Both the position numbers and the translations under genes were made by a program. A stretch of DNA of 26,018 nucleotides from Candidatus Sericytochromatia bacterium (GTDB lineage: Bacteria; Cyanobacteriota; Sericytochromatia; S15B-MN24; UBA4093). Every line of letters starts with the position of its first letter. Within the stretch, counting starts at the first letter, position 1. This document shows, piece by piece, positions 2,288 to 21,211 of this stretch. The stretch covers positions 1-26,018 of the forward strand of contig JAKFBU010000033.1 of the NCBI GenBank assembly GCA_036676985.1, in the 5' to 3' direction. The notes below the pieces were generated by a model. The model saw nothing but the letters and a program-made list of their open reading frames with translations. It did no database searches and was not told the DNA's origin.

Positions 2288-2557
2288 CTAAAACGCAGCC
2301 TCGCCGTTCTTGGTGATCGTGCCGGTCAGCACGCCCAGGCGGACGAGATCGGCGGCAATCTTGCGATTGTTCGCCTCCAGGAGGGTGGTGGAGAATTCCT
2401 GCAGGTACTGAACCATCGCCAGCTCCCGAGCCGTCTCGGGCTCGAGCCCCGCATGCTGATTGGCCTTACGAAAGGTCTCCAGGCGCTCCAGGGCCTGGGA
2501 GCCCTCACGGTGCAAGAGCGCGGTCACATCGGCCGCGCTCAGTCCTAGTTGGTGCAT
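2288..2557 (-). CDS. Small helical hypothetical protein (89 aa)
   Basis: Fills the gap between the kinase and nupC and overlaps the kinase 3' end by 13 nt. Normal amino-acid composition; no family recognised. Confidence 0.65.
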   Translation of the reverse strand: MHQLGLSAADVTALLHREGSQALERLETFRKANQHAGLEPETARELAMVQYLQEFSTTLLEANNRKIAADLVRLGVLTGTITKNGEAAF

Positions 2558-4149
2558 GACCCGTCCTTTTCCGGTCCCGCCATGGGCAGCCGGACGCTGA
2601 AACGCGATCCCGTGCCGAGGGTCGACTCGACGTGGATCGTCCCGCCGTGCAGCTCCACGATCTCCCTGGCGATCGCAAGCCCCAGCCCCGAGCCGTCATA
2701 GCGCCGGGTGCTGCTGGAATCCACCTGGTAGAAGCGATCGAAGACGCGCGCGAGCGCCTCCGCGGGGATGCCCACCCCGGTGTCCGAGACCTCGTAGACC
2801 ATCGTCTGGCCCTCGACCCGGGCGCCGAGGCGCACCTCCCCGCCGGGCTCGGTGAACTTGAGGGCGTTGATGGCGAGGTTCATGAGCACCTGCTGGTAGG
2901 TGGTCTCGGGCGAGGCCCAGATCATGGGCAGCTCGTCGGGCAGGTCGACCACCAGGTGCTTGTCCACGGCGTAGGGGCTCAACTTCAAGTCCTTGGCCGC
3001 CTCGAGGATCTGCTCGCGCGGGTCCACCCACTCGTAGTAGAGCTTGAAGTGGCCCGCATCCAGCTTCGAGAGGTCCAGGACCGTGTTGACCAAGTTCTTG
3101 AGGCGCTCGGATCCCCGCAGGATGTCCTGGACCCGGTCCATCTGGTCGGAGGATAGGTTTCCGAGCACGCCCTCCTCAAGCATGGAGGCCGAGCCCACGA
3201 TCGACTGCAGGGGCGTGCGCAGCTCGTGGCTCATGTTGGAGATGAAGTCGCTCTTGATCTGGTTGGCGAGCTTGAGCTCCTGGTTGATCTCGAAGAGCTC
3301 GCGCGTGCGCGCGTTGACCCGCTCCTCGAGGCTCTCGATGAAGTCGGCCTGCAAGTGAACCAGGCGACGCTCCTGCGTGACGTCGTAGAAGCTGAAGACG
3401 GCTCCCGCGAACTCGCCCAGGTCATCGAGGAAGGGCACGGCCAGAACCCGGTAGTAGGCCTCCCGAGGGCTCTTCAGCTCTACCTCGAGGACGACCGTCT
3501 GCTCGGAAAGCTGGAGCCAAGGGCTGAAGGCCGCCTCGACCTCCTCGGGAGCCTGGTAGCACGAGCGGACTCGGCGCCACAGCGCCTCCATGCTTTCCGG
3601 CAGCTCGACCTCGTCCAGCCCGTGGACCTCGCGGTAGGCCTTGTTGAGCTGCAAGGGCCTCCGGCGTGCGTCCACGAAGAGCAAGGGGATCTGCATGGCG
3701 TTGGTGACGCGCTCCAGCCGCTCGGAGACGATCCCCTCTCGAACCGCCAGGCGATCGTAGCCGATGGCGAGCGCCAGGGCCGAGACCAAAGGACGCAGGA
3801 GCTCGGCCGCGTCTTCCTGCTGATCGCCGGGGACCAGGAAGAGGTACGCTCCCAGCTGCTGACGCGCGATGGTCAGCGGCAGGTAGAGCAGGCCGCCGCC
3901 GGCGTCGGGGTAGACCCGGGGCGTCTCGGTGAGGGCGCCGAGGCCCGTGAAGGCGGCGATCGCCTCGGCCGCGGAGACCTCCCAGGTGGCCTCCAGGTGG
4001 AGCTGGGTGCCGGTCGCGATCCAGTAGCTGCCCCAGCTGGCCCCGAGAAAGCGCATGGCCCGCTCGGCGAACTCGGAGATGGCCTCGCTGCCCTGGGGGT
4101 CGAACGCCTTGAAGGCGTGGAGCACGCCGTCTCGCAGATCCTGTGTCAT
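2545..4149 (-). CDS. Cytoplasmic sensor histidine kinase (GAF-like, PAS-like, HisKA, HATPase_c)
   Basis: H-box SNMSHELRTPL, N-box NLAINALKFT, G1 DTGVGI, F-box VFDRFYQ, G2 GSGLGL; PAS C-terminal motif FYDVT; no TM segment seen. Confidence 0.95.
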   Translation of the reverse strand: MTQDLRDGVLHAFKAFDPQGSEAISEFAERAMRFLGASWGSYWIATGTQLHLEATWEVSAAEAIAAFTGLGALTETPRVYPDAGGGLLYLPLTIARQQLGAYLFLVPGDQQEDAAELLRPLVSALALAIGYDRLAVREGIVSERLERVTNAMQIPLLFVDARRRPLQLNKAYREVHGLDEVELPESMEALWRRVRSCYQAPEEVEAAFSPWLQLSEQTVVLEVELKSPREAYYRVLAVPFLDDLGEFAGAVFSFYDVTQERRLVHLQADFIESLEERVNARTRELFEINQELKLANQIKSDFISNMSHELRTPLQSIVGSASMLEEGVLGNLSSDQMDRVQDILRGSERLKNLVNTVLDLSKLDAGHFKLYYEWVDPREQILEAAKDLKLSPYAVDKHLVVDLPDELPMIWASPETTYQQVLMNLAINALKFTEPGGEVRLGARVEGQTMVYEVSDTGVGIPAEALARVFDRFYQVDSSSTRRYDGSGLGLAIAREIVELHGGTIHVESTLGTGSRFSVRLPMAGPEKDGSCTN

Positions 4150-5267: not shown

Positions 5268-6326
5268 CTAGCGCAGCTCCTCCGGATTGTTCGGGTCCCA
5301 GTCGGCCTGCTCGGAGACCAGGTGCGACCGGGTCTCGGCGACCGAACGCCCCGCTCCATGGCTCGGGCGCGGGTGGGCGTCGGTGATCCGGAGCCGCTCG
5401 GCATCCACGTGGGCGATGCCGGGGACGCTCTGGGCGACCTTCTTGGCCGCCATGGCCTGCTCGGGGAAGTCCACGTCCCCTTGCAGGTAGGCATAGTCGT
5501 CCACCACGAAGACCTTGATGTTCGCAGGGCTCAGGTGCTCCACGGTCGTCAGCCTGCGCCGGATCTCGGTCGCGAGCGCCTCGTTGCAGCCGGCGCTGCC
5601 GTCCTGGCTGACCAGGAGGTTCAGCACGTCCGTCACGCCCGGCACCGCGCGCGCCAGGATCTCGGCCTGCGCGCGCTCCTCGGCGGACTTCACGAAGCCC
5701 GTGAGGCGCACGACCCCGCCCTGCACCGTGGTCCGGATCTCGTCGGCCCGCCGCAGCACCTCGCCGAGCTTTCGTTCGACCGCGTTGACGATGTCGCTGG
5801 TCGCCCGATCGACCTCGATGGGCAGGCCGGTGCCCACGCCCTGGACCTGGCCGTGGACCGTGCCGCGCTCGGGCCCGATGGTCTCGACGACCTCCCGGCG
5901 GTGCGGCGTCACGTTCTCGACGTGGACCGCGCGCACGCCCGGCACCTGCGCGACCAGGCGCGCGGCGCGATCGCGCAATTCGAGGCTCGCGGCGCTGCCC
6001 TTGAGGGTGGCCTCCCCGCGCTGGATCACCACGCCGAGGGAGTCCGGAAGGCCCTCGCGCCGGAGCAGCGCCTCGGCCTGCTGCGTCAGCTCCTGATCCG
6101 TGTGCAGTCGGTTGCCCGCCACCGTCAGCGAGTTGTCGATGTCGAGCTGCGGGGCGATCTGACGGGCCAAGAAGGTGGCCTCGTCCTTTTCGGCGAGCGT
6201 GGACACCTCGCCCGCCAGCGCGATCGTGTCTCCGAGCATGGTGATGCTGATCCGCTCGGCCTTGATCTTGGGATCCTTGGCCAACGCTTCGCGCAGGGTG
6301 TTCGCAATGTCTTCCTGGCCCTTCAT
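5268..6326 (-). CDS. BON-domain protein (about 4 BON repeats)
   Basis: Repeated BON-type segments such as ITMLGDTIALAGEV, IQRGEATLKG...VPGVRAV, VQGGVVRLTGFV...VPGVTDVLNLL, VVDDYAYLQGDV...VPGIAHV. GAGGA Shine-Dalgarno; no signal peptide seen. Confidence 0.9.
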   Translation of the reverse strand: MKGQEDIANTLREALAKDPKIKAERISITMLGDTIALAGEVSTLAEKDEATFLARQIAPQLDIDNSLTVAGNRLHTDQELTQQAEALLRREGLPDSLGVVIQRGEATLKGSAASLELRDRAARLVAQVPGVRAVHVENVTPHRREVVETIGPERGTVHGQVQGVGTGLPIEVDRATSDIVNAVERKLGEVLRRADEIRTTVQGGVVRLTGFVKSAEERAQAEILARAVPGVTDVLNLLVSQDGSAGCNEALATEIRRRLTTVEHLSPANIKVFVVDDYAYLQGDVDFPEQAMAAKKVAQSVPGIAHVDAERLRITDAHPRPSHGAGRSVAETRSHLVSEQADWDPNNPEELR

Positions 6327-6407
6327 CGCCTATCCTCCCCTTCCTCGGCCGGGGAGCCCGCTCGGAACGGCCTGACGGCATCTGGGGGCTCCTCGCGTTT
6401 GCGCACG

Positions 6408-6416
6408 AGGATAGCA
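6408..6416 (-). promoter_or_regulatory. Possible extended -10 (TGcTATCCT) for the BON gene
   Basis: GTGTGCTATCCT on the minus strand about 80 nt upstream of the ATG. Confidence 0.35.
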
Positions 6417-6464
6417 CACCCCGGCGCGCGCACCGACAGTCCGTCTGGGGTTTGGCGGGGGGAA

Positions 6465-7052
6465 TCAGGTGTCGGAAGGACGGCGCTGGCGACGCACGGC
6501 GTCGACGCTCTCCCTCAGGTAGCGCTCGAGCTGGGCGCGGACGGTGTCCGAGACGTCCCGGAAGGTCACGAGCGAGGGCCCGTCCTCGCTGCGCAGGACC
6601 TTGGCCTCGAGCTTGATCACTCCCTCGGGCAGGAACAGGGAGAGGCGAACGCGATCGTCCGGCGTGAGGGGGCGATTGAGCTCCAGGCGCGCCCCCGCGC
6701 CGGAGAGGGTCTGCGTGTGGCCCGACGCCAAGAGGCGGCCTTCGGGGATGCTGCGCACGTCCACCGCCACCCGGCGGCGCAGGTGCACCTCGGCCCGCCC
6801 CTCGGGGGCGAGCTCCTCGAGGGGCACGGCGATCTCGACCACCGTCACGGCCGTCGCCTGGGCGCGCAGGAACGGCTGCTGCCGGCCGTCCGCCCAGGTG
6901 ATCCGGCCCTCCGGCGGGAGCATGGAGGCCGCGTCGTGGGGAATGCGGATGGCCACGGTGGCGTGGGTCGCGTCGACCCGCACGACCTCGCCGACGACCT
7001 CCTCGCCCTGCCACGAGACCACGGCCAGGGAGCCGGGCTTGGGGGTGGCCAT
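6465..7052 (-). CDS. PilZ-domain protein (degenerate c-di-GMP motifs)
   Basis: C-terminal half fits the PilZ pattern: GHTQTLSGAGARL...DRVRLSLFLP...LEAKVLR...VTFRDV...LERYL. Confidence 0.75.
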   Translation of the reverse strand: MATPKPGSLAVVSWQGEEVVGEVVRVDATHATVAIRIPHDAASMLPPEGRITWADGRQQPFLRAQATAVTVVEIAVPLEELAPEGRAEVHLRRRVAVDVRSIPEGRLLASGHTQTLSGAGARLELNRPLTPDDRVRLSLFLPEGVIKLEAKVLRSEDGPSLVTFRDVSDTVRAQLERYLRESVDAVRRQRRPSDT

Positions 7053-7055
7053 GGG

Positions 7056-8297
7056 CTAGCGATGCAGGGCGTTGGAGGAAGAGAGCAGGCCGCGCTTCTT
7101 GGGCTTGCGGCGGCGGCGCAGGCCCTGCCACCGGAAGACCGAGAACAGGGCGACCGAGAGCGCTCCACCCTTGAGGAACCAGGCGAAGACCGCCCCGAGA
7201 TCCCCCCACAGGGGTCCCGCCGCCGCGACGGCCGCAGCCGCCACCACCGGCGCCTGCGCCACGATCCGGTCGCCGTCGCGCAGCTCGTAGCTGCCGAGTA
7301 CCTGGCCCGCCTTGACCGGTGCTTGGACCTTGTCCGCCACGCGGAACGAGGCCTGGACCTCTGGCTTGGCGCCGCCCTTGGGCACGCTCAGGGCGATCGC
7401 CTCCTTCAGGATCGCGGGCACCTGGCGCTGGCTGCCGCCCATGACCGAGACGTTCGCCACCCGCTGGCCCGCGCCCGCGATGGGCTCGGAGGTGAAGCCG
7501 TCGATGCCGTAGTTCAGGAGGTTCTCGGCGTCGCGCCAGCAGTCCGGATCGCTCAGGATGGCCTCGATGACGTAGCGGCCGTCGCGCTTGGCCGAGCCCA
7601 CGAAGCACTTGCCCGCGACCGAGGTGTAGCCGGTCTTGCCGCCCCAGGCCCCCGGGAAGTAGCGCAGCAGCTTGTTGTGGTTGACGAGCAGCCGGTGCTC
7701 GATGCGCTTGTTGCCCGGAAGCTCCTTGGTCTTGGTGGCGGCGATCGTCGCGAAGGTCGGGTTGGCGAGCGCATAGCGGGCGATCATGGCCATGTCGTAG
7801 GCGCTCGAGTAGTGATCCGCGGCGGGCAGGCCGTGCGGGTTGGCATAGTGGGTGTTCTTGAGCCCCAGGGCGGCGGCCTTCTGGTTCATGAGGGCGACGA
7901 ACTGGTCCGTGTCGCCGGAGACGTACTGGGCCACCGCATCCGTCGCGTCGTTGCCCGAGTTGAGCATCATGCCGTAGAGCAGCTGCTCGAAGGTGAGGCG
8001 CTCGCCGGGCTCCAGGTAGATGCTCGAGCCGTTGATGTCGGCGCTCTTCTTGCTGACCACCACGATGTCGTCCATGCGGCCCTTCTCGAGGGCGACGATG
8101 GCGGCCATCATCTTGGTGGTGCTCGCCTGGGGCAGGCGCATGTGGGGGTTCTTGGCATAGAGGACCTGACCGGTCACGCCGTCGATGACGATCGCGGCCT
8201 TGGCCGTCACCTCCGGCGTGCGGACGGCGTGCGCCGAGGGCGCGAGCGAGCCGAGCATACCGAGCGCCAGAGCCAGGATCAAGGACTTGCGAAGCAA
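7056..8297 (-). CDS. D-alanyl-D-alanine carboxypeptidase (peptidase S11, DacA/DacB/DacF-like)
   Basis: Signal peptide, SxxK (ASTTKMM), SGNDA, NPHGL, KTGYT, PBP5_C-like domain (APVKAGQVLG), C-terminal hydrophobic anchor and basic tail. TTG start after GAGGAG. Confidence 0.93.
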   Translation of the reverse strand: MLRKSLILALALGMLGSLAPSAHAVRTPEVTAKAAIVIDGVTGQVLYAKNPHMRLPQASTTKMMAAIVALEKGRMDDIVVVSKKSADINGSSIYLEPGERLTFEQLLYGMMLNSGNDATDAVAQYVSGDTDQFVALMNQKAAALGLKNTHYANPHGLPAADHYSSAYDMAMIARYALANPTFATIAATKTKELPGNKRIEHRLLVNHNKLLRYFPGAWGGKTGYTSVAGKCFVGSAKRDGRYVIEAILSDPDCWRDAENLLNYGIDGFTSEPIAGAGQRVANVSVMGGSQRQVPAILKEAIALSVPKGGAKPEVQASFRVADKVQAPVKAGQVLGSYELRDGDRIVAQAPVVAAAAVAAAGPLWGDLGAVFAWFLKGGALSVALFSVFRWQGLRRRRKPKKRGLLSSSNALHR

Positions 8298-8604
8298 GTG
8301 AGCGTTCTCCTCACGGGTAGGGATCCGATGACAACATATCGACAGATCACGATTATAACGAGCCCGAGCTCCCGAAAAGCTTTAAGCTTCGTTAAGCTCC
8401 GTCCCTATCCTAGGGGGCGAGTCGCCCGGCGACGGTGATCCCGCTCACCCCGCATGCCGGCGATGTTTGCGGCAGATTTGGAGCGGATTAAATCCCCGTT
8501 AAACGATCCGGCGCCGATCGCGCCTGATCGGTCGACGGCATGCGGCTTTGCGGCGATCCGGGCACCCCTGGCCGCGAGTCTAGCCAAAAACCGTTAAGAT
8601 CCTC

Positions 8605-8672: not shown

Positions 8673-8745
<73 letters not shown>

Positions 8746-8750
8746 CTGGG

Positions 8751-8774
8751 AGCCCCGCGAAAGCGGGGCTTTTT
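8751..8774 (+). terminator. Intrinsic terminator after tRNA-Lys copy 1
   Basis: AGCCCCGC-GAAA-GCGGGGCT followed by TTTT. Confidence 0.85.
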
Positions 8775-8797
8775 GATGGCCGTCCACCGGATCTCCA

Positions 8798-8826
8798 TTG
8801 ACGGTCAACCAGTTGCCGGATAGAAT
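8798..8826 (+). promoter_or_regulatory. sigma70 promoter for tRNA-Lys copy 2 / tRNA-Ser / PNP
   Basis: TTGACG-17 nt-TAGAAT. Confidence 0.8.
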
Positions 8827-8849
8827 GACTGCGGCGTTCGCGCCGTTAC

Positions 8850-8922
<73 letters not shown>

Positions 8923-8964
8923 CTCGACTTCAGGCCCCGAGAGACAACGGGCAACCTGGTCCCC

Positions 8965-9054
8965 GGGGAGATGCCAGAGTGGTTGAATGGGCATTCCTGG
9001 AAAGAATGTAGACTGCGTCAAGCGGTCTCGGGGGTTCGAATCCCCCTCTCCCCG
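8965..9054 (+). tRNA. tRNA-Ser(GGA)
   Basis: Acceptor GGGGAGA/TCTCCCC with G73, anticodon arm CATTC-CTGGAAA-GAATG, long variable arm AGACTGC/GCGGTCT, T-loop TTCGAAT. Confidence 0.96.
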
Positions 9055-9104
9055 CTCTTTCACCACAACCTAAAACCGCCACCCGAGACTCCCCCGGAGG
9101 ATTC

Positions 9105-10084: not shown

Positions 10085-10675
10085 CTAGTCCTTGATGATC
10101 TCGTCCTTGCCCCAGAAGATCCGGGCGTAGTTCTGGCCCGGCGCATAGTCCGTGCTCACGTCCGTCCCGTGGAACGTCTTCTTGAGCAGGGTCGCCAGCC
10201 GGTGGGCCAGGAAGGGCGAGATGGTGTCCACCTCGACCTCCGCGTCCCCGTCGACGAGCTTGCCGATCCGTTCGTGGGGGTTGGTGGCCCGCGCCCGGTT
10301 CTCCTCGTTGAAGACGGTGTTCAGGATCTGCTCATGGAAGCGCTCGAGGCCTTCCAGCTTGAGATGCAGCTCGCCGTGGAAGTCCCCCCGCTCGATGGCC
10401 CGGCAGCTCTGGCAGACCAGGCCCGTGACGTTCGGGTTGTTGACCAGCTTTTGATACTCGGCCTCGTCCAGGTGCCAGTGCTTGGGGTGATAGATCGCAT
10501 GGCAGCTGACGCAGTAGGCCGTGTCGCCCTGGATGTCGGGTGCCCAGTTGCCCTGATGGGGATCGTCGGGCCGCAGGTGCTGGACCCGCTGACCGGCGAC
10601 CTTGCGTCGCCCCTCGCGTCCCGAATGGGTGGAAAGCGATCCGCCGAGCCCGGTTACCTTGCTCGGTCCCTTCAT
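10085..10675 (-). CDS. BCAM0308-like protein with two CxxC motifs (NMD3-like Zn ribbon), 196 aa
   Basis: True start is likely ATG 10675 after AGGAAGGAG. CVSC...HW...CQSC..I..G..G, NEENRAR..NP.ERI, LAHRLA..LKK.F.G and RIFW match my recollection of this family. Confidence 0.75.
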   Translation of the reverse strand: MKGPSKVTGLGGSLSTHSGREGRRKVAGQRVQHLRPDDPHQGNWAPDIQGDTAYCVSCHAIYHPKHWHLDEAEYQKLVNNPNVTGLVCQSCRAIERGDFHGELHLKLEGLERFHEQILNTVFNEENRARATNPHERIGKLVDGDAEVEVDTISPFLAHRLATLLKKTFHGTDVSTDYAPGQNYARIFWGKDEIIKD

Positions 10676-10927
10676 CGTCTGCTCCTTCCTGTCGAGTGCC
10701 TGACCAAACAGGCACGATCGCCACGGACGGCCGCTGAGCGACTGCACCGCTGGGTGAATCGGCGCCGTTACGCGCTCTGCAGGCCCCGCAGGGCACTGTA
10801 ACGATTTGTTGCGGCCCATCTTAGCACACGCGTCGGGCGCAATTCGACAGTGGAACGAGAGATACGCCGCTCCGGGGCGCGCATGGCCCGGGCGTGTGAG
10901 ATAATCGCCTCCCAGAGGAGGTGCCCC

Positions 10928-11509
10928 ATGCACGAGGCGATGACTCAGTTCATGCCGCACGGCATGTGCTACCTGTGGCAGCCGCCGCTCGTTGTCGCGC
11001 AGGTCGTCACCAACGCCCTGATCGCGCTCGCCTACTTTTCGATCCCGCTGCTGTTGCTGTATTTCATCGGGCGCCGGCCGGACATCCCCAACCCCCTGCT
11101 GTTCACGCTGTTCGCGATCTTCATCCTGGCCTGCGGCACGACCCACCTGCTGGACATCGTCACCATCTGGCACCCGATCTACTGGGTCGACGCCGTCGTC
11201 CGGGCCGTCACGGCCCTGGCCTCGGTCGGCACCGCCGTCGTCATGGCCCCTCTGATGCCGCGCCTCCTGCGCAGCGGGACCGTCGAGCACTACCTGGAGG
11301 CCATGTCCAAGGCCGTGCTCGAGGACAAGAACGCCGCGCTCGAGGCCGCGAACGAGCGGCTCGCCAAGGCGAACGACGACCTCCAGGCGCAGGTCCGGCT
11401 CATGGACCGATCCGCCGAGAGCCTGGCGGCCCGAGAGCAACGGATCAGGGAGCTCCGCGAAGAGGTCGAGCGGCTGAGGGCCGAACTCGCGCGTCGCCCA
11501 GAGGCCTGA
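10928..11509 (+). CDS. Stand-alone ethylene-receptor-type membrane domain plus C-terminal coiled coil (193 aa)
   Basis: ATG 10928 after AGGAGG. FMPHGMCYLW, ALIALAYFSIP, FAIFILACGTTHL and AVTALASVGTA match the ETR1/Slr1212 three-TM ethylene-binding domain; heptad-rich tail follows. Confidence 0.88.
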   Translation: MHEAMTQFMPHGMCYLWQPPLVVAQVVTNALIALAYFSIPLLLLYFIGRRPDIPNPLLFTLFAIFILACGTTHLLDIVTIWHPIYWVDAVVRAVTALASVGTAVVMAPLMPRLLRSGTVEHYLEAMSKAVLEDKNAALEAANERLAKANDDLQAQVRLMDRSAESLAAREQRIRELREEVERLRAELARRPEA

Positions 11510-11510
11510 C

Positions 11511-12809
11511 ATGCGGCGAGTCGGACTCCGCAACGTCCTCTTGATCTGGGCCGGCCTGGCCTGGGGGCTCGGAGCGCTCATGTTCCTTAGCAACGTCTGG
11601 ACCCTCCAGGAGACCATGACGGGGCACCTTCCCTACCGGCCCCTGGACCTCGCGCTGACGATCGTGCGCCTCGTCGCCGGGCTGCTCGGCATGGTGGGTG
11701 CGCACGTGCTGTACTTCCTGTCCAAGGAGCACGTCCTCTTTCCGATCGAGCGCCTCAAGGAGAGCTTTCGCCACCTGGAACGCGGGAGCCTGGACGTGCG
11801 GGTGGAGAACAGCGAAGGGCTGCGCGAGTTCGAGGAGATCGCGGCCATGGCCAACCGCATGGTCGAGCGTCTCAAGGCCAACACCGAGGCCCTCCAGCAG
11901 GAAAACCTCCGGAGCCGCAACGCCTACGAAACCATGCTCAGCGCCCTGGAGGACACGGCCGCCCTCAACGAAGAGCTCAAGGCCCGGAGCGCCGAGCTCA
12001 CGGACTCGCTGCGAAGGCTCGAGAACGCCTATCGCGAGCTCAAGGAGCTCAAGGAGGTCGACCGCCTCAAGAGCGACTTCCTGAGCGCCATCTCGCACGA
12101 GTTGCGCACCCCTTTGAACTTCATCACGGGCTTCGGCTCGGTCCTGGACGACGAGGTGGCCGGGCCGCTCACGCCCGAGCAGCATCGCTACATGCGCAAG
12201 ATCCTCATGGGGGCCGAGCAGCTCATCTCGCTCATCAACAACCTGCTCGACTTCACCCGCATGGAGGCCGGGCGCTTCACGATCCTGCGCCGGCCCACCC
12301 GCTACCCGGAGCTCGTCCGGGCCGCCGTCGACAACCTGCGCCAGGTCGCTCAACAGAAGGGCCTGGACCTCTCGGAGGAGCTGGGTGAGCTGCCCGTCGT
12401 CCAAGTGGATCCCGATCGGGTGACGCAGGTGCTCTACAACCTGCTCTTCAACGCCATCAAGTTCACGGAGCCCGGCGGTGCGATCCGCGTCCGGGCGTAT
12501 GCCCGCCCGGACGCCGTCGTCACCGAGGTGATCGACACGGGCATCGGGATCGGCCCGGACGATCTGCCCAAGGTCTTCACCAAGTTCTTCCAGGCGGACG
12601 AGGTCAGCACGGGCAAAGGGCGTCAGACCAAGGGCACGGGCCTCGGGATGGCCATCACCAAGGGCCTGGTGGAGGCGCATGGCGGCTGCATCGAGGTGGA
12701 GAGCGAACTCGGCAAGGGCACGACCGTCCGCTTCACCCTGCCCCTGAACGTCCCGGAGCCCGAGCGGTCCGTGCCGACCTCCGCAGAGGGCGGAGCCAAG
12801 GGCACCTAG
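11511..12809 (+). CDS. Membrane histidine kinase (2 TM, HAMP, coiled coil, HisKA, HATPase_c)
   Basis: HAMP PIERL...G.LDVRV...EFEEIA..ANRM; SHELRTPL; NLLFNAIKFT; DTGIGI; GTGLGM. Confidence 0.95.
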   Translation: MRRVGLRNVLLIWAGLAWGLGALMFLSNVWTLQETMTGHLPYRPLDLALTIVRLVAGLLGMVGAHVLYFLSKEHVLFPIERLKESFRHLERGSLDVRVENSEGLREFEEIAAMANRMVERLKANTEALQQENLRSRNAYETMLSALEDTAALNEELKARSAELTDSLRRLENAYRELKELKEVDRLKSDFLSAISHELRTPLNFITGFGSVLDDEVAGPLTPEQHRYMRKILMGAEQLISLINNLLDFTRMEAGRFTILRRPTRYPELVRAAVDNLRQVAQQKGLDLSEELGELPVVQVDPDRVTQVLYNLLFNAIKFTEPGGAIRVRAYARPDAVVTEVIDTGIGIGPDDLPKVFTKFFQADEVSTGKGRQTKGTGLGMAITKGLVEAHGGCIEVESELGKGTTVRFTLPLNVPEPERSVPTSAEGGAKGT

Positions 12810-13885
12810 TAGGTCTGGACGATGGTGACGTCCGGGTGCCGCTTGAGGTCGATCTCGTAGGGCTTCTGGCGCTGGCGGCCATCCGGGTCGACGGTGACGC
12901 GCACGGTCGGACGCATGGGCAGGACGCGGTCCACGGCGATCACGAGGCCCTCCTCCTGGGTGCTGAGACGGACGGACGTCTCGAGGGGAAAGGGCACGAG
13001 GAGCTTGAGGAACTCCGAGACGAGCGCGTGGCTGAAGTGCGAGCCCCCCGACGCCATCAGGTACTCCATGGCCTGGTGCGGAGGGTTCGGACGCCCCTGG
13101 GCCAGGTCGTGGATCAGGTTGTCGTAGGTGTTGGCGATCGCCGCGATCTGGGCGAACGGATGGATCTCGCTCTCCTTGAGCCCCTTGGGGAAGCCCGAGC
13201 CGTCGGCCCGCTCGTGGTGCTGCAGGGCGATGATCCGGGCCGGGCCGCTCAGGCTCTTGCCCATCTGCTGGAGCATGTCGAAGCCCACGCGCGCATGGGC
13301 GCGGTAGCCGTCATGCGTGAGGGTCTCGGCGCCCTCGTGCATGTGCAGCAGGTCGGGGGCGAGGACGGTCTTGCCGACGTCGTGCAGCAAGAGACCGACC
13401 GCGAGATCCACGAGCTTGGACGGCGGCATCCCCAGGCGCTCGCCCAAGGCGAGGCCCAGCAGACAGACGTTGACCGAGTGATCGAAGATGTAGGAGCTCG
13501 CCGTGCGCAGCTCGGCGATCTGGAGGTTCAGATCGCGGTTGCCCTGCAGCTCCGACATGATCGAGGTGGCCGCGTTGTAGAGGATGCGCCGGCTCACCCA
13601 CTCCTGGTCGAGGCTCTTGTTGGGCTCCCGCACCTTCTTGAAGGTGTCGCGCACGGCCTTCAGGGCATCCTGGCGCGTCCGCTCGCTGATGGGCTCGTTG
13701 ACCTGGACGTCCAGGGCATGCGGATCCATCACGTACAGGGCCTGGTAGCCCATGCGCTCGAGCGTCTCGACGTAGGGCGGCGAGAGCTCCGTGCCGCGAT
13801 GCAGCAAGATCCGGCCGTCCTCGCCGTAGATCGTCTTGCCGAGGCGCACCCCGGGCGCAACGTCTTGTATCATTACCAGCCGCAT
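12806..13885 (-). CDS. HD-GYP-family phosphodiesterase-like protein
   Basis: HSVNV, LLHDVGK, HHERADGSGFPKGL, EI...AQIAAIA; typical N-terminal PG..L...IY...G.ILL and C-terminal P....V.LS..E.G.V...RP.V extensions. Confidence 0.9.
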   Translation of the reverse strand: MRLVMIQDVAPGVRLGKTIYGEDGRILLHRGTELSPPYVETLERMGYQALYVMDPHALDVQVNEPISERTRQDALKAVRDTFKKVREPNKSLDQEWVSRRILYNAATSIMSELQGNRDLNLQIAELRTASSYIFDHSVNVCLLGLALGERLGMPPSKLVDLAVGLLLHDVGKTVLAPDLLHMHEGAETLTHDGYRAHARVGFDMLQQMGKSLSGPARIIALQHHERADGSGFPKGLKESEIHPFAQIAAIANTYDNLIHDLAQGRPNPPHQAMEYLMASGGSHFSHALVSEFLKLLVPFPLETSVRLSTQEEGLVIAVDRVLPMRPTVRVTVDPDGRQRQKPYEIDLKRHPDVTIVQTY

Positions 13886-14100: not shown

Positions 14101-14173
14101 GGCACTGTCGCCAAGTGGTTAAGGCAAGCGGTTCATACCCGCTCATCCGCTGGTTCAAATCCAGCCAGTGCCA
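14101..14173 (+). tRNA. tRNA with CAT anticodon, non-initiator (probably elongator Met; Ile2 not excluded)
   Basis: Acceptor GGCACTG/CAGTGCC with paired 1:72 (so not fMet), anticodon arm AGCGG-TTCATAC-CCGCT, T arm GCTGG-TTCAAAT-CCAGC. Confidence 0.93.
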
Positions 14174-14177
14174 CTGA

Positions 14178-18212: not shown

Positions 18213-20063
18213 TTACTGCTTCCAGCTGTAGGGGCCCGCCGACAACGTACCGCGCTGTGACAGGGTGCCGTCCACGTTCTGCTTGAAAATCCGGAACACC
18301 GCGCGATCGCTGTCGTTGGCCGTGCGCGCCCCCAAGGTCGGCGTGATGCGCGTGCCGTTGTCGTCGGTCGAGAGGTCCGTGTTGGGCTTGGTCCCGATGC
18401 GCAGGAGCAAGGGCAGGCCGGGCGGCGTGTTGATGAGCACGGGCGAGACGCCGAAGCTGATGGTGGCCCCGGCCGCGGGCGCGACCGCCGCCGGCAGGTA
18501 GCTCGCCGAGGCGATGAACTTGTCCGCATCCACCGCGCCGCCGCGATACAGGGAGACCGAGAGGCGCCGCGCGGTGGGCGGGTAGTCCTCCACGCCGAGG
18601 GTGTAGACCGTGTCGGCGGTGCCGGAGGGGTCGTAGAGGTAGGTGCAGCTGTCGACGTTGGTGTTGGCCGCCACCGCGAAGCTGGCCGAGGCGCCGCGCG
18701 TGGTGGGCGCCGTCGCGCCCTGGGTCATGGTCGACACCCAGGTCTTGGTGCCCGCGTCATAGGTCGGGACCGTCAGCGTCCCGATGGTCGAGCCCGGCAG
18801 GTAGGCCAGGGGGTTGGGCGCGTTCAGGCTGTTGTTGTTGAGGGACGTGGTGTAGGGCTCCATCGCTGCCCGCCAGACGTAGCCCTCCATCTGCCGGGCG
18901 CCGAAGTCGCCGCCGGTGATGAGGTTGTTGTAGGCATCGCGCAGGGTGATCCGGAGGGTGTCCGTCTCGCCGGCCCGGCGCGGATAGGCCGAGATGCCGT
19001 CGTCCGAGCCGATCACGATGCTGCAGTTGGGCTGGCTCACGGCCCCCGGGTGCACGTTGACCTTGTGGAGGTCCACGGAGCCCGCCCCACCGAGGAGGCT
19101 CACCATCTCGCCACGCGCCAGGTAGTACTTGGCGTCGGCTCCTTCCGTCGAGCGGGTCGGCGTGAAGGTGATGGTGCCGTCCGAGTTGTCCGTGAGGGGA
19201 TAGAAGTCATAGCTGTCGACCTTCGTGAGGTCGAGGAAGTCGCTCGTCGCGGTGGGGGCGTTCGCCCGCACCACCACGACGCGATCGCCCTGGCGGACAT
19301 TGCTCGCCGCGAGGGTCAAGGGGTTGCCGGCGTCCACCTGGCGGGTGGTGTTCAGGACCGCCGCGCCGAAGCTCGGAGGCTGCGAGACGGTGATGGGCAA
19401 GGTGGTCGTGTTGCCCGGGATCACGCTGCCCGTCGCCGCGCCCACGCCGTAGCCCGCGAAGGTGTCCGAGGTATCGCTCAGCTCCGAGCCCCCGTTGTTG
19501 TTCTCATAGAAGGAGAGCACCGACGGTGCGCTCGCGGTGCCGCCGAGGTCCGAGCCCTTGAACACCAGCACCTTCTCCGCGACGTCCCCGATGACGGCCG
19601 TGACGTGCGTATCCGTGCCGTCCAGGGCGAAGGTGGCGGGCTCCCCGTCCACGGGCACCAGGCGCTTGCCAGGGCCGATGAACTGCTTGAAGGTGGTGCG
19701 CACCGTGATCCACGCCGTGCCGGGCGCGACGTCCTGGAAGAGCAGGTTGACCTGCCCGCCCGGCATGCCGACGGCCTCCGGGTTGCGGCAGACGAGGAAG
19801 GACTGGTGGCGGCCGAGGCTGTCGACGGCCATGACCTCGACGGCGTTGATGTAGCCGTTCTGGTAGGCGTACTGGGCCGCGCGCTCACCGAGCTTCGGCA
19901 GCGTGACGGGAACGACCAGGCTACCGGGAGCGGCCGGCTGCTCCACGCGGGTGGGCTGGACGCCGAGCGGCCCTGCCGGACGGACGGCGCATGCGGCCAG
20001 GAGCCCGAGGCTGGTGGCCAGTAGAGCGCTCGTCACGAAGGTCGCCGCGGGGTTGCGAAACAT
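18213..20063 (-). CDS. Large beta-rich lipoprotein (616 aa) with an Ig/invasin-like module
   Basis: ATG 20063 after GAGGAG; lipobox LLAAC; Thr/Gly/Asn-rich; LRITLRDAYNN resembles Big_1/filamin-type Ig motifs. Confidence 0.82.
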   Translation of the reverse strand: MFRNPAATFVTSALLATSLGLLAACAVRPAGPLGVQPTRVEQPAAPGSLVVPVTLPKLGERAAQYAYQNGYINAVEVMAVDSLGRHQSFLVCRNPEAVGMPGGQVNLLFQDVAPGTAWITVRTTFKQFIGPGKRLVPVDGEPATFALDGTDTHVTAVIGDVAEKVLVFKGSDLGGTASAPSVLSFYENNNGGSELSDTSDTFAGYGVGAATGSVIPGNTTTLPITVSQPPSFGAAVLNTTRQVDAGNPLTLAASNVRQGDRVVVVRANAPTATSDFLDLTKVDSYDFYPLTDNSDGTITFTPTRSTEGADAKYYLARGEMVSLLGGAGSVDLHKVNVHPGAVSQPNCSIVIGSDDGISAYPRRAGETDTLRITLRDAYNNLITGGDFGARQMEGYVWRAAMEPYTTSLNNNSLNAPNPLAYLPGSTIGTLTVPTYDAGTKTWVSTMTQGATAPTTRGASASFAVAANTNVDSCTYLYDPSGTADTVYTLGVEDYPPTARRLSVSLYRGGAVDADKFIASASYLPAAVAPAAGATISFGVSPVLINTPPGLPLLLRIGTKPNTDLSTDDNGTRITPTLGARTANDSDRAVFRIFKQNVDGTLSQRGTLSAGPYSWKQ

Positions 20064-20074
20064 GCCGACTCTCC

Positions 20075-21211
20075 TCAGTTGGAAACGCGCCAGGGCGCGG
20101 TTTGAACGGGTAGGTTGCCAGGGGCCGCCGAGGGCATCGTCACCGGGACGCTCAGGGAGGACTGGCTCGAAGGGGGAACGATGACCTCGGCGAGGATGAC
20201 GGCCCCGGAGGTCGTCACCGTCACGGTCCGCTCGCTCTGGACGTTGCCCGAGGTGGCCCGCAGGATGGTCGTGCCGGGACGGAACGGGCGCAGGAGGCCG
20301 TATTCGTCCACCGAGGCGACCGACGGGGCGCTCGAGGACCACACCACGGCGTCCACGTCGCGCTTGCCGCCGTCCGAGAAGGTGGCCTTGACCGTCAGGG
20401 GCACGGCCCGGTAGGCCTGGAAGGGCAGCCGCCACTGCGGCAACTCCAGCTTGGTGATGACCTCGAAGTTCCGGTACTTGCGGATGCCGTCCACCATGAG
20501 CTCGAGCTGTCCCGTGACGGCGCCGGCGGGGACCGTGGTCTCGATCTCCTCGTCGCTGAGCCGAGTGGTTAATGTGGTGGTGGCGGTGTTGGTCGCGGGC
20601 ACGCCCGAGAACTTGACGGTGTAGGCGTGGTCCAGGGTGCGCCCGAAGTTCGCCCCGGAGATGAGCACCTTGCAGCCCACGCCGCCGTAGGCCGGAGCGA
20701 CGGTAGTGATCTCGGGCTGGATGAGGGGCGTCATCGTGATGGGCGCGACGTTGATGTTGTTGGCATAGATATCGACCGTGCCGGTTCCGAGGGCGATGGG
20801 CGTCGTGTTCTCGGTGGGCGTGGACTCTCGGTACATCTTGGCGACCACCTGGACGCCCATGGTCGCCTTGACCCGGAAGAAGGCCTGCGACGCGAGGTTG
20901 CCCTCGCTCGGGCGCGGGACCGTGGCCTTGGCTATTTCACGACCGGCGGAGTCGTAGAGCCAAATGATGGCCTTGCTCGCGCTGAAAGGGATGGCTGCCA
21001 CCGTGCGATCCGGCCACTTGATCTGGATCTGGAGCGTGCCCTCGGCGGCCGGCGTGACGATCCGGTAGCCCGGGTCAGAGGCCGCCGCGACGGAGGTCGG
21101 CGCCGACGTCGAGGGTGGGGTGGCCTGGGCACAGGCCACGAGCAGGGCCGAGAGCGCGAGGCTTCCGAGGGCGCGGGCGTGGCGGAGGGGGTTGGAGAGC
21201 CGCTGAGACAT
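20075..21211 (-). CDS. Lipoprotein with IPT/TIG and Big_2 Ig-like domains (378 aa)
   Basis: ATG 21211; lipobox LLVAC; IPT/TIG PEITTVAP..G..G.KVLISGANFG...VP.GA.TG; Big_2 VVWSSSAPSVASVD..G......PGTT...ATSG. Confidence 0.88.
   Translation of the reverse strand: MSQRLSNPLRHARALGSLALSALLVACAQATPPSTSAPTSVAAASDPGYRIVTPAAEGTLQIQIKWPDRTVAAIPFSASKAIIWLYDSAGREIAKATVPRPSEGNLASQAFFRVKATMGVQVVAKMYRESTPTENTTPIALGTGTVDIYANNINVAPITMTPLIQPEITTVAPAYGGVGCKVLISGANFGRTLDHAYTVKFSGVPATNTATTTLTTRLSDEEIETTVPAGAVTGQLELMVDGIRKYRNFEVITKLELPQWRLPFQAYRAVPLTVKATFSDGGKRDVDAVVWSSSAPSVASVDEYGLLRPFRPGTTILRATSGNVQSERTVTVTTSGAVILAEVIVPPSSQSSLSVPVTMPSAAPGNLPVQTAPWRVSN

Follow-up and report, generated by a model that had tools for sequence, protein, structure and literature searches.

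A stand-alone ETR1_N membrane protein next to a membrane histidine kinase: a candidate two-piece sensor kinase in Candidatus Sericytochromatia

A stretch of 26,018 nucleotides (positions 1 to 26,018 of contig JAKFBU010000033.1) of a Candidatus Sericytochromatia bacterium, from here on called the window, carries a pair of adjacent genes on its forward strand (positions 10928-12809). The first, open reading frame A (ORF A), encodes a small membrane protein built from the ethylene-receptor domain ETR1_N and a long helix, and the second, ORF B, encodes a membrane-bound histidine kinase. This two-gene pair is real, conserved and more than a product of chance. On balance we lean towards the view that the two proteins form a two-piece sensor kinase, in which the tail of A would pack on the linker of B and A would act as a Cu(I)-type membrane sensor.

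The gene pair and its conservation

ORF A (10928-11509, stop codon included) encodes 193 residues. Its sole Pfam family is ETR1_N (PF25487) at residues 21-115 (10988-11272), a span that was also returned by the genome search; the match has an E-value of 9.3e-36 and 122.4 bits against a cut-off of 27 and covers profile positions 2-96 of 97. An NCBIfam scan of A produced coiled-coil noise only, and a PDB sequence search revealed no solved chain that matches it. The three transmembrane (TM) helices of the domain are supported by a hydropathy scan and by an AlphaFold2 model (22 orthologues, mean predicted local distance difference test score, pLDDT, of 76), which places them at residues 19-49, 56-81 and 85-115. 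After a three-residue break the model continues with an unbroken helix of 71 residues (119-189; 11282-11494) with a pLDDT near 90, in which Leu 131/138/145/152 and Asn 135/142/149 follow each other at heptad distances of 7. By the positive-inside rule, the basic residues of GRRPD, the loop that connects helix I with helix II, and of PRLLR after helix III fit an N-out, C-in topology, which would place this helix in the cytoplasm. In the clade it does not have the sequence of a generic coiled coil. Within it, D160-R-S aligns with an ERT signature in the linker helix of the fused relatives of genomes G036 and G044, and R161 is nearly invariant; we take ERT to be the classical signalling-helix signature. 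A Shine-Dalgarno-like GAGGAGG, read from the sequence at 10915-10921, lies 6 nucleotides ahead of the ATG. An alternative GTG start at 10850 would extend the protein to 219 residues; the orthologues have 187-209. No second ETR1_N gene accompanies A in its genome, which has one.

ORF B (11511-12809) encodes a kinase of 432 residues with two TM segments, a HAMP-like region, a linker helix, HisKA and HATPase_c. Some 15 residues, NVWTLQETMTGHLPYRP, separate the TM segments (about residues 8-29 and 44-72; 11532-11726, from the hydropathy scan), and the outer loop formed by them has a conserved NVW.LQE. The HAMP-like region (residues 78-122; 11742-11876) reaches an E-value of 4.3e-4 and 21 bits with the Pfam HAMP model, under its 25-bit cut-off; the BarA/TorS models of NCBIfam align from residue 54 on, which supports the reading as TM2-HAMP. 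HisKA (187-254, with His196) and HATPase_c (300-413) together cover 12069-12749 and are identified by Pfam as well as by matches to solved kinases, 49 of whose sequences match the core at E ≤ 1e-10.

The two reading frames meet at a TGA (11507-11509), one base, and an ATG (11511). Four contigs bridge this junction (11507-11513) with 0 gaps. They stem from four runs belonging to four studies, one of these being also the study of the possible source sample, and contain substitutions, but no gaps; from 10916 to 11668 they have no listed indel. Near-identical sequence is present in soil and groundwater metagenome contigs. A split of one gene by sequencing error is excluded by the gap-free junction in the contigs of the four runs. 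A conserved frameshift that fuses A to B is ruled out as well, since the spacings vary (+1, +4, -11) and no fused homologue was found. Relative to A, B lies in the +1 frame at three loci and in a different frame at locus L004. Translational coupling of the two genes across the 1-nucleotide junction is likely. An initial annotation, made from the letters of the window alone, had described A as a three-TM ethylene-binding-type domain with a coiled coil and nothing more, ending one nucleotide before a kinase that has its own TM-HAMP N-terminus and whose pair of TM helices is connected by some 15 residues, and had argued that this is not simply a frameshifted gene. This description holds, as seen from the single Pfam family and the model helices of A, the hydropathy segments of B, the conserved pair, the gap-free junction and the lack of a fused A+B protein in the searches.

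An ETR1_N profile search and a gene-neighbourhood check, both suggested in the initial annotation, show the pair to be conserved in four genomes of the class. At E ≤ 1e-20 an ETR1_N match occurs in 10 of 47 genomes; 4 of these proteins are stand-alone, and the rest are fused proteins of 414-847 residues. The stand-alone orthologues of A lie in G000, G002, G018 and G017 (100, 74, 59 and 51% identity). The next gene in G002, G018 and G017 is a 2-TM/HAMP kinase, at +4, -11 and about +2 nucleotides, in one of the three with an additional PAS domain. Residues 1-190 of B give strong matches (E ≤ 2.4e-10) only in the four A-bearing genomes, there at the A locus, and every other match in the 47 genomes has an E-value of at least 3.3e-6. 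Four genomes of the class possess A or B, and in each of the four the two genes are neighbours. Flanking synteny was not found when nine window proteins were compared by tblastn with the 13-kb stretches around three orthologous pairs, which recovered A and B and, beyond these, nothing but an unspecific hit of the second kinase of the window to the kinase core. As no other neighbours are shared, A-B moves as a cassette.

About 31 near-full-length ETR1_N-only proteins of 187-209 residues are 55-100% identical to A, one of them labelled Candidatus Sericytochromatia bacterium. Three more metagenomic kinases are 66-72% identical to B, and their contigs are equal in size to those of three A orthologues, which suggests further A-B pairs. 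A single-protein scan of species genome contigs with ORF A gave no relative. With alignment A4 as query against 201 genomes of the phylum, the orthologue in G002 was not recovered at E ≤ 0.01, and the weaker matches (E ≥ 0.001, frames of 26-53 residues) were noise-like.

Could A be a leftover? In the same class there are fused ETR1_N-coiled-coil-HisKA-HATPase kinases of 410-425 residues, and the tail of A ends about where their H-box would lie, so that A might be the decaying remnant of such a protein; alternatively, it might act on a target other than B, with adjacency reflecting co-expression. Two of these fused kinases, in G036 (410 residues) and G044 (425 residues), have the same domain with 41-48% identity over residues 6-189 and a similar long helix. 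They carry the ERT signature and run into their own H-box, whereas A has DRS and ends in an RE-x-R-I-x-E-L-R tail. Decay or indifference to B is hard to reconcile with the strict co-occurrence of A with the N-terminal module of B, adjacent in all four genomes without any other synteny, with spacings of 1-4 nucleotides or an overlap, with a junction and frames that stay intact in variant contigs, and with the conservation of A itself (51-89%, tail residues invariant, across 22 sequences). We consider both versions very improbable.

Wider searches of fused proteins complete this picture. An exhaustive HMMER search collected 8,435 ETR1_N relatives; its top three cluster representatives have 193-200 residues and 186-218 bits, and below the stand-alone clade the scores are 157 bits and lower. 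Ten top proteins were scanned: three are stand-alone, and seven combine ETR1_N with PAS and/or histidine-kinase domains, some with a REC domain. A word-based search of longer proteins gave 459 at E ≤ 1e-30, the best with 164 bits. Neither the HMMER nor the word-based search found a fused A+B protein. HAMP is absent from the ETR1_N fusions among the best 150 of the 8,435 and the best 120 of the 459, which have the architecture ETR1_N-(PAS/GAF)-HisKA-HATPase(-REC).

A recurrent pair of tail and linker motifs

The most conserved cytoplasmic parts of the two proteins are the tail of A and the linker of B. The tail motif R169-E-Q-R-I-R-E-L-R-E-E-V ... L187 (11432-11488), whose V180 lies 13 residues before the stop, has the core REQRIRELREEV; no clade member deviates at R169, E170, R172, I173, L176 or L183. 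The linker motif A138-Y-E-T-M-L-S-A-L-E-D-T149 (11922-11957) emerged from an alignment of seven kinases, in which the stretch reads AY.TM[LV][SAT]AL[EA]D with A145, L146 and D148 invariant; MLSALED, at residues 142-148, lies 48 residues ahead of His196. Lineage-specific inserts, one of them a whole PAS domain, start right after this motif, which thus closes a conserved input module.

The initial annotation had proposed that a longer string of the tail, AREQRIRELREEVERL at residues 168-183 of A, docks on the string RNAYETMLSALED at residues 136-148 of B, and had mentioned similar motif pairs at other signalling loci. Both strings are present, and such pairs do exist: RE-x-[KR]-[MI]-x-x-L-[KR] tails on kinase-less sensors upstream of LNILED-type kinases, whose motif follows the pattern [LMIV]L[NS]x[LM]ED, are a real and recurrent motif pair. 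No Pfam or NCBIfam model matches the tail or the LNILED repeats.

A tail search of the 201 genomes of the phylum returned, besides the ETR1_N orthologues, two kinase-less proteins with four PAS domains that end in GRELKMIELKKEI. At both loci (L032, 36-3063 of G018:C232, and L033, in G026:C279) the sensor is followed after 3 nucleotides by a kinase (336/366 residues) and then by a receiver gene. The N-terminus of these kinases consists of 4-5 repeats of about 22 residues (AVLNILEDF).

A wide tail scan of species genomes, for which the narrower alignment A6 was used as query as A5 is too diverse for a pattern scan, was evaluated for the best 80 of at least 516 confirmed stretches (L046-L125). 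They are spread over many phyla of Bacteria, with two archaeal metagenome-assembled genomes (MAGs; Thermoplasmata/Thermoplasmatota) as further sources. The GRELKMIELKKEI tail lies 10-24 residues from the stop of a kinase-less sensor in 80/80; PAS is found in 76 of the sensors, and of the 31 families that occur in them, the 25 most frequent include no kinase domain. A downstream ORF on the same strand is present at 74 of the 80 loci, with a modal overlap of 4 nucleotides. These 74 ORFs contain HATPase_c (67), HisKA (56) or HisKA_2 (15); 49 have the strict motif and 58 LN[ILMV][LM]ED, and the motif precedes the H-box in 47/47. As the query included upstream residues, the 80 loci represent one closely related PAS-plus-tail family and show the frequency of pairing, not the diversity of sensors. 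Even between very distant phyla, the two Thermoplasmata-type archaeal MAGs among them, the tail region ERLAELERFQKLTVGRELKMIELKKEIE retains 65-95% identity.

The tail is not restricted to PAS sensors. Six short stand-alone ETR1_N proteins of other lineages (P0120 from Polyangiales, P0088, P0111, P0145, P0190 and P0250) have a GRE-type tail, F....[GDN]RE.[RQ]M..LK..[VI]N.L...LGRP, which aligns with the tail of A without a gap. Among the best 80 of at least 595 confirmed loci in an ETR1_N context scan, four complete tail-bearing stand-alone proteins were identified, from Polyangiaceae, a Pseudomonadota MAG, Nitrospirales and Verrucomicrobia (L126, L173, L192 and L203). At L173, L192 and L203 a membrane kinase with AALSLMED, ILNILED or MLSMMED lies within about 35 nucleotides; at L126, in Polyangiaceae, the kinase ORF is about 200 nucleotides downstream and has the weaker AALNIAAD.

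How close are A and B to these systems? Comparison by hhalign brings the tail of A in register with the GRE tails of stand-alone ETR1_N proteins (P 8e-6, probability 83%). The linker of B has Ser/Ala at the canonical Asn/Ile and occurs as a single copy after HAMP. A six-frame translation of the own genome comprises 31,689 ORFs; B is the sole carrier of the kinase-motif pattern among them, and the tail pattern turns up twice, one of the two being A. In their own genome, family-specific hidden Markov models (HMMs) of the A tail and the B linker match themselves alone, and an HMM built from the GRE tails of the six ETR1_N proteins finds neither A nor B. We hold with moderate confidence that A and B are divergent members of the tail/LNILED motif pair.

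The putative copper site, a proposed mechanism and its alternatives

In TM2 of A, the putative Cu(I) ligands C69-G-T-T-H73 (11132-11146) correspond to Cys65/His69 of ETR1; the motif is invariant in 22/22 alignment rows, and Cys69 and His73 are kept in 33 of the 34 clade members. A also has Y36, I39, P40 and I66, each shifted by 4 relative to the ETR1 numbering. Their counterparts Tyr32, Ile35, Pro36 and Ile62 are part of a seven-residue list which we take to be required for binding. Asn29 (11012-11014), invariant in the stand-alone clade, matches ETR1 Asp25, an assignment made by its distance of 40 residues to the Cys of CxxxH and by conservation, with no direct ETR1 alignment. The initial annotation had named the CxxxH motif and seen in A a subunit that senses copper or a gas. 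The kept Cys/His ligands speak for the first part of this proposal; the ethylene sensor is its weakest part, with Asn for Asp25 and Arg for Lys91. Copper binding by most clade members is plausible from these residues. High-affinity ethylene binding by A is doubtful, because Asp25 is replaced by Asn and Lys91 by Arg or Asp.

Work on ethylene-binding domains (EBDs) gives these positions some context. Of 1,221 EBDs, 93.55% carry Asp25 and 3.67% have Asn in its place, the latter mostly in cyanobacteria; Asp25 is proposed to form a bridge with Lys91 in ETR1, whose D25N variant is a functional receptor of reduced affinity (Azhar et al. 2023, PMC10266040). Natural Asn25 ETR1-like variants are reported to be still functional ethylene binders with faster kinetics (PMC10266040; PMC11971883).

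In the mechanism that we infer, A would be an ETR1_N-type membrane sensor subunit without enzyme activity of its own. It would probably hold Cu(I) on Cys69/His73 and receive a small copper-binding ligand, ethylene or another, as input. The signal would run down the 71-residue cytoplasmic helix to the conserved end REQRIRELREEV, which would form a complex with B by packing against its MLSALED helix, between HAMP and the phospho-accepting helix. This packing may shift the kinase/phosphatase balance of B toward a response regulator encoded elsewhere. Consistent with the earlier remark that the window contains no response regulator, there is no receiver domain on its contig (C33), and 55 Response_reg matches lie elsewhere in the genome; beside the orthologous pairs, no receiver gene appears among the listed ORF N-termini, which were not profile-scanned. 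A complex prediction with two copies of A and two of B residues 1-190 (own alignments, no controls) reached 0.08 and 0.00, where the mark is 0.32, and is counted neither way.

Several observations weigh against this mechanism. The distribution of the pair is patchy (4/47 genomes). The likeness of the motifs to the canonical ones is modest: hhalign aligns the A tail with canonical tails at P 1.1e-3 and the B linker with the canonical LNILED repeat at P 7e-3, both in register, and HMMs built from canonical tails or repeats miss A and B in their own genome (E > 10). The B orthologues have the looser linker variants MVTALED, LVAALED and MVAALAD. The patterns behind the motif counts in the own genome were written after A and B were in view. 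At the binding site, the helix-I column matching Asp25 holds Asp in 222 and Asn in 42 of 266 homologues, and Asn is found in all 34 clade members and 8 others. The helix-III column matching Lys91 holds Lys in 211 of the 266, Arg92 in the window and Arg or Asp in the clade; this position was mapped by conservation, as the loop of A is 3 residues shorter than the ETR1 spacing. ETR1 with both D25N and K91R is ethylene-insensitive in planta (PMC10266040). Finally, Ser replaces Cys14 as well as Cys69 in P0125, a clade representative of 193 residues that keeps the His and the tail; its copper site is apparently lost.

The missing Cys of P0125 and the replacement of Asp25 and Lys91 across the clade would also suit a different role, in which A is a constitutive accessory regulator or scaffold, as LiaF is for LiaS, and ETR1_N is reduced to an anchor and dimerisation module. 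The kinase with its own 2-TM/HAMP module and conserved NVW.LQE loop fits such a role, too. For a mere anchor, however, it is unexpected that 33 of 34 clade members retain Cys69 and His73 together with the matches to Tyr32, Ile35, Pro36 and Ile62, and we regard the scaffold as unlikely.

Another possibility is that A senses copper availability or the redox state of the membrane via its Cys/His pair, not a gas, and reports this to the kinase. The copper ligands are indeed conserved while the Asp for high ethylene affinity has been lost (PMC10266040). On the other side, no copper-homeostasis genes stand beside the pair at any of the four loci, and natural Asn25 variants are reported to bind ethylene still, with faster kinetics (PMC10266040; PMC11971883). 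Sensing of copper or redox state seems quite unlikely to us.

Relatives, neighbours and implications

The relationship of the stand-alone proteins to the fused ones was explored in a tree of the ETR1_N domain, which is unrooted and short (112 columns, 86 rows). Of its rows, 14 are clade members, 10 are stand-alone proteins that bear a tail and 62 are fused, with 60 of this last group drawn randomly and the others chosen for Asn25; P0125 and P0029 were left out, their anchor motif being missing or cut. The clade of the window forms one side of a branch with 99/92 support. The other tail-bearing stand-alone proteins are scattered among the fused ones, and well-supported branches force at least 2 changes, which indicates that the stand-alone-plus-tail form arose or was lost more than once. 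As the tree is unrooted and short, we claim no direction for this gain or loss.

Kinases with an ETR1_N domain are a recognised family, and accessory membrane proteins that feed loop-less kinases are a known principle (Lia, Bce). With the fused ethylene receptors ETR1/ERS1 of Arabidopsis, Slr1212 (SynEtr1) of Synechocystis and AzoEtr1, the pair shares the three-helix ETR1_N domain, the CxxxH motif and the histidine kinase output. It differs in that A is a separate protein of 193 residues without GAF, PAS or kinase domain and with Asn/Arg for Asp25/Lys91, and in that the kinase is a second gene with two TM segments and HAMP. A single conserved Cys near the N-terminus is common to A and the cyanobacterial receptors, and AzoEtr1 of Azospirillum is an EBD-PAS-histidine kinase protein of 525 residues (PMC11819568; PMC6682694). 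In LiaF-LiaS (PMC3543457) and BceAB-BceS (bioRxiv 10.1101/2020.02.28.969956), a two-TM kinase with a minimal loop takes its input from an adjacent membrane protein, as proposed here. The loop of B stays under about 25 residues between two TM segments as in the Lia/Bce kinases, and the BceS chain 8g3a was matched. A is not homologous to LiaF or BceAB; the partner has a ligand-binding-type domain, and the proposed contact is a cytoplasmic one of helix to helix.

The class of PAS sensors described above (GRELKMIELKKEI tails and LNILED kinases at L032, L033 and L046-L125) has in common with the pair a sensor gene directly ahead of its kinase gene, which in the class it often overlaps. The tail less than 25 residues from the stop and the kinase motif before the H-box have probable, divergent counterparts in A and B. 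The sensors of the class contain PAS, not ETR1_N; most of its kinases are soluble and carry 1-5 repeats, each some 22 residues long, in contrast to the single copies after HAMP in the window. The other stand-alone ETR1_N proteins with GRE tails share the order of ETR1_N, helix and tail, followed by a membrane kinase with the motif. They keep Asp at the Asp25 position, end in LGRP..Y and fall among the fused proteins in the tree, apart from the clade of the window.

The surroundings of the pair contain further features. Convergent to the pair lies an HD-GYP-type gene (12806-13885, reverse strand; Pfam HD_5, E 6.5e-24) that shares 4 nucleotides with the kinase at its stop. Its HD part matches the NosR family of cyclic di-GMP phosphodiesterase regulators, the first 116 or so residues have no family match, and in none of the three relatives does the gene neighbour A-B. 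The window encodes another orphan histidine kinase (PAS_4, HisKA, HATPase_c) at 2545-4149 on the reverse strand, again with no receiver gene nearby. Upstream of A, a divergent ORF (10085-10540, reverse strand) encodes a Cys-rich protein with two CxxC-like pairs and no Pfam family, and a minus-strand frame of 510 residues running over ORF A is probably an artefact of high GC content. In a promoter and terminator scan of the stretch no sigma-70-like site was found; one minus-strand terminator-like site inside ORF A is within chance expectation. Two tRNA-Lys(CTT) and one tRNA-Ser(GGA) precede the pair (8673-9055, forward), and a tRNA-Met(CAT) lies between the HD-GYP gene and tilS (14101-14174, forward). 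The long ORFs at 5322-8438 (forward, 1038 residues) and 18213-20435 (reverse, 740 residues) match no Pfam family at E ≤ 0.001.

In all experimentally studied ethylene receptors named in the literature consulted, the binding domain is fused to the output (PMC10266040, PMC11819568, PMC6682694). The literature searches brought up no account of a kinase that pairs with an ETR1_N protein encoded on its own, nor of the two motifs; subscription reviews and supplements, which lay outside the searches, may list EBD-only proteins. New with respect to this literature are an ETR1_N subunit that is separate and conserved and has its own kinase, the clade-wide Asn/Arg at Asp25/Lys91 and the probable link to the tail/LNILED pair.

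Can the pair be seen as one case of something more general? Tentatively, and as an idea that we think may well prove wrong, it might be an instance of a general, undescribed wiring code. Sensors of any type, PAS and ETR1_N among them, would be encoded separately and end in an RE-x-K/R-M/I-x-x-L-K/R helix that plugs into LNILED-type units before the H-helix of the kinase; the number of units (1-5) would set how many sensors dock. ETR1_N would have been recruited to this code at least twice, yielding minimal copper or gas sensor subunits of 190 residues.

A conserved stand-alone ETR1_N protein of 193 residues with a defined kinase partner would be a minimal object for structural and ligand work and would allow a direct test of how the ETR1_N membrane domain passes its signal on. 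The Asn25/Arg91 state of the clade represents a natural experiment on the proposed Asp25-Lys91 bridge. If the docking code holds true, genome annotation would assign orphan sensors to kinases in a different way, and the minimal sensors of 190 residues would be suited to a first experimental structure of the ETR1_N domain.

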